Part shown: positions 2,024 to 62,182 of the stretch, one piece after another
Layout: every line of letters begins with the position of its first letter
Numbering within the stretch: the stretch's first letter is position 1
Assembly (NCBI GenBank): GCA_019058295.1
Contig: JAHPZI010000021.1
Location: 160,001 to 224,000 of the forward strand
Reading direction: 5' to 3'
Origin: Promethearchaeota archaeon
GTDB lineage: Archaea; Asgardarchaeota; Lokiarchaeia; Sigyniarchaeales; SOKP01
Length of the DNA: 64,000 nucleotides
Program-made: the position numbers and the translations under genes
Notes under the pieces: generated by a model
Seen by the model: only the letters and a program-made list of their open reading frames with translations
Told to the model about the DNA's origin: nothing
The model's database searches: none

Positions 2024-2806
2024 ATAGTATTTGCGGGAATTGATATAGGGTCTCTCACAGGTAAAGCATTATTGTTAGAAGATAGTGAGATCCGTGGATT
2101 TAAAATAATTAGGGTAAAAAAAACTCCCGTTGAAACTGCTGAAAGTGTTTTTGAAATGGTTTTATCCGAGACGGGGATAAATAGGGATAATGTAAAATTT
2201 GTGGTTAGTACAGGTTACGGGAGAGATAATATTCCCTTTTCTAATAAAAGTATGACAGAAATCACATGCCATGGGTTAGGTGCCCATTTTCTAATACCAA
2301 GCATTCGGACGATAATTGATATAGGGGGTCAGGATTGTAAAGTAATCGCCGTAGATCGAACGGGTAAATTAGTTGAATTTGCAATGAATGAGAAATGCTC
2401 CGCAGGCACGGGAAGATATCTCGAAATAATGGCCAATTTACTCCATATTTCACTCGATGATCTTGGGACTTTATCATTGAAGAGTAAAACTCCTGTTCAA
2501 TTGAAAAGTACTTGTAGTATTTATGCTCAAGCCGAGGTATTGCAATGTATCAATTCTGGATTTAAGAAGTCTAATATAGCTGCGGGAATTAATAAAGCTA
2601 TGGCTGAGCGCGTTTATTCCATGTCAAAAAAAGTTAAGATGAGACCAGATGTGGTTATTTCTGGAGGTGTAGCTAAAAATGCTGGTGTTGTCGGTTATCT
2701 GGAAGAAATGATAGGAATCGAATTCTTAAAATTACCAATTGATCCTCAAATTATTGGTGCTCTTGGAGCTGCTGTAATTGCTCAAGAGAGGTATAAAAGA
2801 AAGTGA
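2024..2806 (+). CDS. ASKHA-fold acyl-CoA dehydratase/reductase activase, HgdC/BzdQ-like
   Basis: STGYGR, EITCHGLG, DIGGQDCK, MNEKCSAGTG, TCSIYAQ, GGVAKN, GALGAA. The essential N-terminal FAGIDIGSLTGK lies upstream of the track start (2072), so the start is extended to ATA 2024. Confidence 0.85.
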   Translation: MVFAGIDIGSLTGKALLLEDSEIRGFKIIRVKKTPVETAESVFEMVLSETGINRDNVKFVVSTGYGRDNIPFSNKSMTEITCHGLGAHFLIPSIRTIIDIGGQDCKVIAVDRTGKLVEFAMNEKCSAGTGRYLEIMANLLHISLDDLGTLSLKSKTPVQLKSTCSIYAQAEVLQCINSGFKKSNIAAGINKAMAERVYSMSKKVKMRPDVVISGGVAKNAGVVGYLEEMIGIEFLKLPIDPQIIGALGAAVIAQERYKRK

Positions 2807-3015
2807 AAAATAACTTATAGAAATTACATGGTTAATTTTTTTTTTCTTATAAAATAAAGACATAATATTTTTTAAAAAACTGTAACTAAATAGCAATAGT
2901 TAATATTTAGGAATCTTAGTGTTAGTCTGATTTAGATTCTTTATAAATATAAATAAATTTCCAGTTTAGTATAGGACAAAATTTAAAAATTCTCAAATTA
3001 AAAAGAGTGAAAATT

Positions 3016-5223
3016 ATGAATGATGAAAAAAAAAATCCTGTATTGGGCAAGATGAAGAGGCCAACAGCCGGTGGTGGCACGACTATCCAAGACTGGTGGC
3101 CGAACCAGTTGAATCTCGATATCCTACACCAACATTCCTCTAAATCTAATCCAATGGACGATGATTTCGATTATGCCAAGGAGTTCAATAGTCTCGATTA
3201 TGAGGCATTGAAGAAAGATCTCGCGGAAATAATGAAAAAGTCCCAAAGTTGGTGGCCAGCGGATTTTGGTCATTATGGTCCTTTGTTCATCCGTATGGCA
3301 TGGCACAGTGCTGGTACCTACCGTGTCGGGGATGGTCGTGGCGGGGGTGGCAGTGGAAATCAACGCTTCCCCCCTCTCAGTAGCTGGCCTGATAATGTTA
3401 ACCTCGACAAAGCACGTCGGTTACTTTGGCCAATCAAGAAAAAATATGGTCGAAAAATCTCCTGGGCTGACTTGATGATTCTCGCGGGTAACGTTGCCTT
3501 AGAATCGATGGGTTTTAAAACCTTCGGTTTCGGTGGTGGGCGTGAAGATATCTGGGAACCAGAAAAGGATACTTACTGGGGCTCTGAGGAAGAATGGTTG
3601 GGTGATGAACGCTGGCACACAGGCGATAAAGATAAACCTGATCTCGAAAACCCGCTCGCAGCCGTGCAGATGGGTTTGATTTACGTCAATCCAGAAGGTC
3701 CAGACGGTAATCCTGATCCCGTTCTGGCGGCGAAGGATATTCGCGAGTCTTTTGGGCGTATGGCTATGAATGATGAGGAGACGGTGGCACTCATCGCAGG
3801 TGGCCACACATTCGGAAAATGCCATGGTGCTGGTCCCGCAGATCATGTGGGACCCGAGCCTGAAGCGGCAGATATAGAAGATATGGGACTAGGTTGGAAG
3901 AGTAACTATGGTTCAGGCAAAGGTGCCGACACGATAAGTAGTGGTCTGGAAGTCACCTGGACTACCACTCCCACGAAATGGAGTAGCAACTTCTTTTGGA
4001 ACTTATTTGGTTTTGAATGGGAATTGACAAAGAGTCCTGCTGGCGCGCATCAGTGGACACCAAAGGGTGGTGCGGGTGCTGGTACCGTACCAGATGCACA
4101 TATCCCAGATAAACGCCATGCACCATCTATGCTAACCACCGACCTTTCTCTACGGTTCGATCCTATATACGAAAAGATTTCACGACGCTTTATGGAGAAT
4201 CCAGATGAATTTCAGGAAGCGTTTGCAAGAGCATGGTTCAAGCTGACTCACCGTGACATGGGTCCACGATCTCGTTATCTAGGGCCGGAAGTTCCTCATG
4301 AAGAACTCATCTGGCAGGATCCAATCCCACCAGTAGATCACAAACTAGTTGATGAAAAGGACATTGCCTCAATCAAGAGTAAGATCCTATCATCTGGCCT
4401 TTCTGTCTCGGAACTAGTTTCGACTGCCTGGGCATCGGCATTCACGTTCCGTGGCTCAGACAAACGCGGTGGTGCGAACGGAGCTCGGATTCGTCTAGCA
4501 CCACAGAAGGATTGGGAGGTTAATCAACCTGACCAGTTAGCGAAGGTTCTCAAAACCTTGGAAAGCATTCAAGCTGAATTCAATGGAGCACAGTCTGATA
4601 ACAAGAAGATATCACTTGCTGATTTGATCGTTCTGGCTGGTTGTGCAGGTATTGAGCAAGCTGCAAAAAATGCTGGTAATGAAGTAAAGGTTCCCTTTAC
4701 ACCAGGACGAATGGATGCATCACAGGAGCAAACAGATGAAAAATCTTTCGCCGTTCTCGAACCCATAGCGGATGGCTTCCGCAACTACCAGAAAACTAAA
4801 TATGCCGTATCAGCTGAGGAAATTCTGGTTGACAAAGCGCAATTGTTAACTCTAACCGCCCCCGAAATGACAGTGCTCGTGGGTGGCTTACGCGTCTTGA
4901 AGACCAACTTTGGAGGAACGCAGCATGGTGTTTTCACTAAACGACCTGAGGCGCTTACAAATGACTTCTTTGTGAATCTGCTCGATATGAACACAACATG
5001 GAAAGCAACTAATGAAGATAAAACCTTATTTGAGGGGCATGATATTGAAACAGGTGAACTTAAGTGGACAGCCACTCGTATTGATCTCATCTTCGGCTCG
5101 AACTCCCAACTAAGGGCATTAGCAGAAGTATACGGTAGTGATGACGGTCAAGAGAAGTTCCTGAACGACTTTGTAGCAGCTTGGAATAAAGTTATGAACT
5201 TAGATCGTTTCGATCTCGCATAG
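3016..5223 (+). CDS. katG: Catalase-peroxidase HPI
   Basis: [78 protein letters not shown] 3016 follows GAGTGA. Confidence 0.98.
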
Positions 5224-61735: not shown

Positions 61736-61897
61736 TAATGTTACTCATCTTATTAGATATTTTAATGAAATTATTAACCAAATTTTAAACAATATATAAT
61801 TAATATTATCTATCAAAAAATTATTAAGAATTTTTAAATATGAATAAAAAAACACAAATATAATAAAAGAAGATATAATAAAAATAGGTGTTTTAAA

Positions 61898-62182
61898 ATT
61901 TATTATCGAGGATATATTCTAGTCCGTCTAAAAATCATTGGTACTGAATGGAAAGTAGTGGAAAAATTGAAAGGTTTAAAATCCACCGACCCTGGTGAAA
62001 ATTGGATGGTAACATATTCTACACCAGTCTATGGTGGATGGGATCTGATTATCGAATGCTCATTTAGTAATCTTCAAGATTTAGATAAAATTGTTACTTT
62101 TTGTAGAGTTGATGATGAACTTGGTCAATGGATAGAAGAAACAACTACATTAGTTTCATCGCGTCCTGATTGGACAAAATAA
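61898..62182 (+). CDS. Stand-alone Lrp/AsnC ligand-binding (RAM)-like domain protein
   Basis: With the N-extension GYILVRLKIIGTEWKVVEKL...PVYGGWDLIIE...DLDKIV...IEETTTLV it fits the RAM pattern; ATT 61898 lies 6 nt after AGGTGT. Confidence 0.7.
   Translation: MYYRGYILVRLKIIGTEWKVVEKLKGLKSTDPGENWMVTYSTPVYGGWDLIIECSFSNLQDLDKIVTFCRVDDELGQWIEETTTLVSSRPDWTK

Follow-up and report, generated by a model that had tools for sequence, protein, structure and literature searches.

Translation of a set of genes in a Lokiarchaeia archaeon very probably starts at near-cognate codons, mainly AUA, AUU and AUC with some ACG and CUG, that are positioned by a Shine-Dalgarno (SD) sequence. Eight candidate genes lie in the window, a stretch of 64,000 nucleotides (G000:C21:160001–224000) of the studied genome, G000, which is metagenome-assembled (3.2 Mb in 30 contigs, 30.7% GC, 79% complete) and whose DNA was found in sediment metagenomes; its proteins have database relatives labelled Promethearchaeota or Lokiarchaeota archaeon. 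The evidence comes from sequence comparison: the position of protein domains and the codons of orthologues at these sites, and a genome-wide enrichment of ATA, ATT and ATC (together ATH) at a fixed distance behind an SD. Canonical starts are here ATG, GTG and TTG. The observation is confirmed, and the reading as near-cognate initiation that depends on an SD and extends through a lineage of Asgard archaea is supported; the gene for the fidelity factor aIF1 has a start that resembles that of infC, and initiation of this kind is known from bacteria.

Eight genes of the window and their orthologues

A sequence-only reading of the window had named eight genes with no canonical start ahead of a conserved N-terminus, and all eight sites carry the named codon (Table 1). 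The nearest in-frame stop lies 3–57 nt upstream of each codon, and all eight open reading frames (ORFs) are intact, over 94–1032 codons. Leaderless initiation was rejected, since an SD lies 6–8 nt upstream of every one of the codons. At 12333, 38804, 47737 and 61898, AGGTGA or AGGTGT is followed by exactly 6 nt and then the codon, so that the geometry claimed for these four sites, that of the ATG gene at 24174, is exact. Eight non-AUG cases among the ~55 genes of the window are a denser occurrence than the genome average.

Table 1. Window genes with proposed near-cognate starts, and the ATG-initiated comparator. The last column gives the distance from the start codon to the first in-frame ATG, GTG or TTG.
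Gene	Coordinates	Strand	Start codon	SD (position)	Spacing (nt)	First canonical codon (codons downstream)
BcrAD_BadFG-type activase ATPase	2024..2806	+	ATA 2024	GAGGGAGGGGG (2005–2015)	8	16
DUF454 (YbaN-like) membrane protein	5414..5905	+	ATA 5414	GTAGTGA (5401–5407)	6	106
Signal-anchored prenyltransferase-toroid + ABC ATPase fusion	12333..15431	+	ATA 12333	AGGTGA (12321–12326)	6	44
Ras/Rab-family small GTPase	21915..22454	+	ATT 21915	GGAGG (21904–21908)	6	38
PAP2-family membrane phosphatase	38049..38804	-	ATA 38804–38802	AGGTGA (38816–38811)	6	36
PfkB-family sugar kinase	42795..43739	+	CTG 42795	AGGTGG (42782–42787)	7	12
DUF5518-like membrane protein	47258..47737	-	ATA 47737–47735	AGGTGA (47749–47744)	6	57
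Small conserved protein, 94 aa	61898..62182	+	ATT 61898	AGGTGT (61886–61891)	6	20
Comparator ATG gene (SD-to-start feature 24162..24176)	24174..25562	+	ATG 24174	AGGTGA (24162–24167)	6	

For at least three of the genes, the position of the Pfam domain makes a canonical start impossible. The BcrAD_BadFG profile is matched from its position 2 at residue 5 of the protein at 2024, in which the first TTG is codon 17. Position 1 of the Ras profile falls on residue 8 of the GTPase at 21915, and the first ATG of this gene, codon 39, lies past the P-loop. In the protein at 5414, position 1 of DUF454 corresponds to residue 41, well ahead of the first ATG, at codon 107.

Each of the eight proteins was searched against 20–30 related genomes, and the codon aligned with the claimed start was read. 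At all eight sites, the start position of the orthologues is the one claimed here. Relatives have in-frame stops directly before the aligned codon, and at six sites other species, in independent assemblies, likewise have a non-AUG codon, either identical or different. Codons, stops, Pfam matches and orthologue alignments therefore agree with what had been read from the window alone. As for ATG at the same position in orthologues, it is found at 2024 and 42795, while the other six sites keep a non-AUG codon in some relatives.

At 12333, the start is non-AUG in all the same-family genomes compared. ATA preceded by AGGTGA and 6 nt occurs in G000, G007, G009, G011 and G012 (40–91% identity, three genera), ACG behind GAGGTGGAG takes the aligned position in G003, G001, G004 and G008, and none of the nine same-family genomes has ATG there. 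The upstream stop, TAA 12331–12333, shares 1 nt with the ATA, which bears out the TA-ATA overlap described for this site. At 21915, ATT is kept in G007 and G005 (83–84% identity) and in G004 (60%; AGGTGG followed by 6 nt), thus in four species with G000; the ATT of each relative lies 6 nt after GGAGG or AGGTGG, and paralogues have ATG at the aligned codon. A Ras-family GTPase query gave 46 matches in G000 and 30–71 in each relative. A Gtr1/RagA-type GTPase at C22:58646 also starts with ATT.

The start of the PAP2 gene at 38804 precedes a conserved 'KIHDKFQ' in all compared orthologues, and its codon is ATA in G000, G005 and G007, ATT in G008, G003 and G001, and ATG in G004. At 61898, ATT is found in G000, G005, G006, G007 and G009 and ATG at the aligned codon in G003, G004, G001 and G010; the orthologues share the N-terminus 'YYRGYIL', and no GTG occurs before codon 21. 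This protein had no Pfam match at E<=0.01. The ATA and AGGTGA at 47737 are kept in G007 and G005 (87–88% identity). The TGA within this AGGTGA is the stop of an upstream ORF, 47744..50587, and the 6-nt spacer differs in the relatives and adds an in-frame TAA; this second stop therefore rules out read-through. At both 47737 and 12333, the SD and the 6-nt spacing are kept while the spacer sequence drifts. At 5414, the G007 orthologue (95% identity) keeps ATT-ATA and the double stop TAG TGA, and the changes within the extension are mostly synonymous; more distant orthologues begin at an ATG ~22 codons further downstream.

The remaining two sites are non-AUG in G000 only. At 2024, where the stop of the preceding gene occupies 2020–2022, the aligned codon is ATG or GTG in nine orthologues, among them that of G007 (79% identity). 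The CTG at 42795 abuts the TGA of the preceding gene (42792–42794); ATG stands at the aligned codon in G004 and G001 and one codon earlier in G009. Here a start at the first GTG, codon 13, would delete the conserved first strand, 'KIGIVGP'.

The gene at 2024 is the second of two neighbouring paralogous BcrAD_BadFG activase genes (1222–2806), which are 35% identical. They lie 1 base apart in G000, where the SD of the second sits within the end of the first, and the gap is 77 nt in G007 and 23 nt in G021. Elsewhere in the window, the gene at 10075..11307 has an ATA at 10072 directly before its TTG (10072–10077), with GGAGG 8 nt upstream of the ATA. Its start is ambiguous, and it may be a ninth non-AUG case.

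Codon and spacing across the genome and the family

For the genome as a whole, the test took ORFs of at least 100 codons and, within them, the in-frame codons that precede any canonical start by 5 codons or more. GGTGA or AGGTG stands 6–7 nt before 46 of 3233 ATA, ATT or ATC codons vs 33 of 19314 other codons, an enrichment of ~8-fold (Fisher p=1.6e-19), so that a genome-wide tally of the codon behind the SD agrees with the pattern first noticed in the window. The 46 ATH cases comprise 18 ATA, 23 ATT and 5 ATC. The same motifs stand at the same distance before 44 first-canonical starts (29 ATG, 4 GTG and 11 TTG), and with background subtracted ~48% of starts with this SD geometry are non-AUG. 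Spacing after 6-mer SDs has a sharp peak for ATA at 6 nt and for ATT at 7 nt, and no spacing peak was seen genome-wide for A/T-only control codons. After GGTGA, ATG is spread over 4–10 nt and ATH is confined to 6–7 nt.

Ten further candidates were checked by Pfam, and their N-termini are complete. The profile is matched from position 1 at residue 2 for HisA and for Gtr1/RagA, from position 2 at residue 2 for NifU_N, from position 1 at residue 4 for flavodoxin, and from position 1 at residue 7 for AFOR_N.

Strong SDs precede a minority of genes: upstream of ATG starts, the share of G rises to 22% between −12 and −8, and ~7% of these starts have a perfect 5-mer SD. Because most genes have no strong SD, non-AUG starts probably make up a few per cent of all genes. 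The sequence-only reading had called such starts pervasive, which holds for about half of the GGTGA-led starts but probably for only a few per cent of genes overall. We estimate the SD-led non-AUG cases above background at ~40, as a floor. Two other estimates were made. The tail of leader lengths holds 103 ORFs with at least 40 codons before any canonical start and extrapolates to ~400 genes, a figure that is not relied on; a codon-usage mixture, rough and weakly discriminating, gives 55–80 coding leaders among the 267 of at least 20 codons.

When every GGTGA or AGGTGA in the genome was counted by spacing and following triplet, no start-related peak appeared, because most of these motifs lie inside genes, and weak 4-mer definitions of the SD drowned the signal. 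The sole raw peak, AGGTGA-N6-ATC (58 matches), was rejected as a set of starts: it stems from a family of tandem repeats with a ~219-nt period. At least 45 copies of this repeat, with the core 'GAGGTGATGTTAAATCTCCAGAGGTCATTCA', occur on C2, C7, C9, C10, C15, C16, C22, C27 and C28. The family is often found at contig ends (for example C7:25–4135) and breaks the assembly, and it probably encodes, on the opposite strand, a repeat unit of 73 residues in very large proteins.

The same SD-geometry count was made on 400-kb samples of four other genomes. It gave 3 ATH vs 3 canonical starts in G001, of the same genus as G000, and 2 vs 3 in G016, of the same family. Of two genomes from other families, G026 gave 3 vs 14, a weaker form of the habit, and G047 gave 1 vs 5, which against a background of 0.7 is no excess of ATH. 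The habit looks strongest in the Lokiarchaeia family of G000.

Start codons of the aIF1 gene follow the family in a similar way. Across 36 genomes of the family, 30 of 36 aIF1 loci have no ATG, GTG or TTG before the zinc knuckle. They carry instead a conserved GGTTGTGA, 9 nt and ATT or ATC, in genera g1, g2, g3, g4, g6 and g19, and in some a single codon lies between the stop and the ATT. Eight loci of two other families complete the 44 that were read, and seven of these eight have ATG or TTG. The open frame of aIF1 is ~107 aa without any Met codon, for example in L189 (G007:C174:10140–11352), L190 and L195. In genus g8, a GTG stands 11 codons before the zinc knuckle, and the aIF1 of G024, from another family, seems to start with ATA. 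Inspection of aIF1 thus gave a non-AUG start in relatives, but aIF1 (PF01253) was not found in the 79% complete assembly of G000 itself. Loss of aIF1 as the cause of the habit was rejected, as 67 of the 81 genomes sampled from the order encode PF01253, among them all four that belong to the genus of G000.

Points against, and alternative explanations

Several observations weigh against SD-positioned near-cognate initiation or limit its reach. At 2024 and 42795, relatives have ATG, and the two non-AUG codons could be recent, possibly deleterious, substitutions. The SD at 5414, GTAGTGA, is weak, with ATT 5411 as an alternative start, and the SDs at 21915 (GGAGG and 6 nt) and of aIF1 (GTGA and 9 nt) depart from the exact geometry of GGTGA and 6 nt; in its 9-nt spacing aIF1 differs from the other non-AUG genes. 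At least one of the 46 ATH cases is false, a copy of the tandem repeat on C27. The genome-wide fraction is uncertain, as leader-length and codon-usage estimates run from ~120–170 up to ~400 and are confounded by short genes, adjacent genes and possible frameshifts, and the 400-kb samples of the other genomes are small. Lastly, the arguments from anti-SD and factors rest on relatives because aIF1, the 3' end of 16S rRNA and the initiator tRNA are missing from the G000 assembly. A search for the 16S 3' end in G000 found none, and its anti-SD sequence is presumably the one generally known from archaea.

Among the alternatives, the one that retains most weight, itself improbable, holds that these are pseudogenes or recently damaged starts, in which AT mutation pressure removed the ATG and the genes are no longer expressed or are losing expression. 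The G000-only codons at 2024 and 42795, with ATG in relatives, and the 31% GC of the genome are what such damage would look like. However, the eight ORFs are intact throughout their length, six of the non-AUG starts are common to species at 40–90% protein identity and are too old for an unselected defect, and the housekeeping genes HisA, IscU-type NifU_N and aIF1 show the same habit. Because the non-AUG state is common to independent assemblies, the six sites are neither recent pseudogenes nor consensus errors.

We consider it very improbable that translation begins at the first downstream ATG, GTG or TTG and leaves the upstream open frame untranslated. Each gene does have a downstream canonical codon, and the public gene calls P0002–P0005 for orthologues of the 21915 GTPase use it. 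Started there, however, the GTPase at 21915 would lose its P-loop, the ATPase at 2024 its phosphate-1 motif, the protein at 5414 two thirds of DUF454, the fusion protein at 12333 its signal anchor, the membrane protein at 47737 its first transmembrane helix, and the proteins at 42795 and 61898 conserved N-terminal strands. The extensions are moreover conserved as protein, with synonymous changes, and the SDs precede the non-AUG codon, not the downstream one.

A second, initiator-like tRNA that reads AUA and AUU starts carries about the same slight probability. A candidate is encoded in an array outside the window (G000:C22:30303–33335), in which 27 tRNA genes for nearly all amino acids, tRNA-Ile(UAU) among them, are packed into 3 kb; only ~16 tRNAs are found elsewhere in G000. 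The array holds the only CAU tRNA that aragorn found in this genome. It has the archaeal initiator hallmark A1:U72 but is without the three G:C pairs of the initiator anticodon stem, and no tRNA was found that has both initiator features and a UAU, AAU or GAU anticodon. The start set, AUA, AUU, AUC, ACG and CUG, instead fits pairing to one CAU anticodon with a single mismatch, mostly at the third base. Neither aragorn nor a pattern search detected a canonical initiator tRNA in G000; in the relatives G007 and G026, inspection of the initiator found a canonical anticodon arm, which leaves an unusual initiator tRNA unsupported as well.

Recoding, by stop read-through or by a programmed frameshift that begins in the upstream gene or at an out-of-frame ATG, is less probable again. 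It draws on the sites at 2024, 12333, 42795 and 47737, which abut or overlap an upstream gene, and on the upstream ORF at 47737, which is in frame and parted from the gene by a TGA. Relatives, however, have two in-frame stops at 47737 (TGA..TAA) and TAG TGA with a further TAA at 5414, and their neighbouring genes at 2024 are separate, with gaps of 23–77 nt. The genes at 61898 and 21915 are at least 160 nt from any upstream same-strand gene. Across the genome, an upstream gene ends within 40 nt similarly often for SD-led ATH starts (35%) and SD-led canonical starts (40%), a comparison that also leaves translational coupling unsupported as a requirement.

That the codons are consensus or assembly errors of ATG, with G read as A or T, has next to no probability: although G000 is a single metagenome-assembled genome whose reads were checked through Logan contigs only, the same non-AUG codon occurs in independent assemblies, including those of sister species, at six of the eight sites and in three genera at 12333, the changes are of different kinds (ATA, ATT, ACG and CTG), and the enrichment is genome-wide and tied to SD spacing. 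In the read check itself, a weak one, positions 2000–21999 of the window were compared with Logan contigs of four DNA runs, each from a different study, and none of the differences listed falls on the four start codons in this interval. The sequencing runs listed for this DNA included no RNA run.

Proposed mechanism, consequences and known systems

SD-positioned initiation at near-cognate codons is thus our preferred reading, and a mechanism can be proposed for it. A strong SD, mostly the GGUGA end of the consensus GGAGGUGA, stands 6–7 nt before the codon, and its pairing with the 3' end of 16S rRNA would bring this codon into the P site, where the usual initiator Met-tRNA would accept a single mismatch, so that the protein would begin with Met. 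As AUG tolerates a wider range of GGUGA spacing than AUH, the weak codon seems to need optimal geometry. The distribution among relatives suggests a trait of the Lokiarchaeia family of G000 and not of single genes, and the drift between ATG, ATA and ATT among orthologues is as would be expected under AT-biased mutation with weak selection on the third base. The sequence-only reading had spoken of relaxed start-codon selection dominated by the SD; the positioning of non-AUG initiation by the SD is supported, and relaxed selection would be one way to account for it. In some genes, the non-AUG codon held fixed, as in 12333 and aIF1, suggests selected weak or regulated translation.

The start of aIF1 itself may bear on how the habit is maintained. 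In known systems, aIF1 destabilises initiation complexes on non-AUG codons (PMC6237735), and IF3 and eIF1 each regulate their own synthesis through a weak start, AUU for IF3 and AUG in poor context for eIF1 (PMC4705826). Because of these two precedents, we propose that aIF1 limits its own synthesis. Tentatively, and with the odds somewhat against it, the AUU or AUC start of aIF1 could form a negative-feedback loop like those of infC and eIF1 that holds start-codon stringency low, so that SD-positioned near-cognate starts would be tolerated, and the percent-level use of AUH, ACG and CUG could be a heritable, tunable form of translational control. If this is so, it would be a third independent case of fidelity-factor autoregulation, next to bacterial IF3 and eukaryotic eIF1, on a homologue of eIF1 in close prokaryotic relatives of eukaryotes. 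A family with many near-cognate starts and an AUU or AUC start on aIF1 would be a natural system in which to study the tuning of stringency in eukaryote-like archaeal initiation, and it allows one to ask whether eIF1-type autoregulation predates eukaryotes.

The habit has consequences for annotation. Prodigal-type gene callers accept ATG, GTG and TTG only. That standard callers truncate genes of this kind, as had been anticipated, is seen for the GTPase at 21915: four of its five nearest public orthologues are 141-aa proteins that begin at Met39 and have no P-loop (P0002–P0005; NCBI, ENA, Logan and JGI). The fifth, P0001, is a 181-aa NCBI protein annotated from an ATA two codons before the ATT. 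In these Asgard genomes, the predicted protein would be expected to be truncated or missing for a few per cent of the genes, among them those for small GTPases, HisA, flavodoxin, aIF1 and a NifU_N protein of the IscU type. Errors of this sort are carried over into lists of eukaryotic signature proteins, into domain analyses and into the phylogenies behind arguments on the origin of eukaryotes.

NCBI translation table 11 permits ATT, ATC, ATA and CTG as alternative initiators, and this codon set is as found here; the table only permits such starts. A review of archaeal translation names AUG, GUG and UUG only as start codons, and describes SDs as not prevalent in the Lokiarchaeon genome that it covers (PMC7531240). 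Our literature searches on non-AUG starts in Asgard archaea and Lokiarchaeota found no description.

The closest counterparts are the AUU and AUA genes of bacteria, such as infC and pcnB of E. coli and infC, ccpN, cvfC1 and citZ of S. aureus (PMC13009471). They likewise combine a codon with a single mismatch, a compensating strong SD and optimal spacing, and the weak codon is likewise conserved among related species. In S. aureus, four AUA or AUU starts need extended SDs and give 10–30% of the output of AUG (PMC13009471). Translation of the bacterial genes is attenuated and sensitive to fidelity factors, and the same consequence would be expected here. Unlike the bacterial genes, which number a handful per genome (four in S. 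aureus), dozens are found in G000, where they make up about half of the GGTGA-led starts. The host also differs, being an Asgard archaeon with eukaryote-type machinery (aIF1, aIF1A and aIF2) and no IF3.

As with IF3 (infC, AUU) and eIF1 (PMC4705826), a fidelity factor appears to be itself under a weak start: in relatives within the family of G000, aIF1 begins at AUU or AUC, which is conserved across 6 genera. Eukaryotic eIF1 uses a poor sequence context where aIF1 here uses a non-AUG codon, and, unlike the feedback of infC and eIF1, that of aIF1 is suggested by the start codons of relatives' loci. Near-cognate initiation in eukaryotes, at CUG, ACG and AUU, likewise involves a single mismatch read by Met-tRNAi, with stringency set by factors of the eIF1/aIF1 type. 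The eukaryotic sites, however, are found by scanning and Kozak context, whereas here the site is set by the SD, and the predominant codons are those with a mismatch at the third position (AUH), not CUG.

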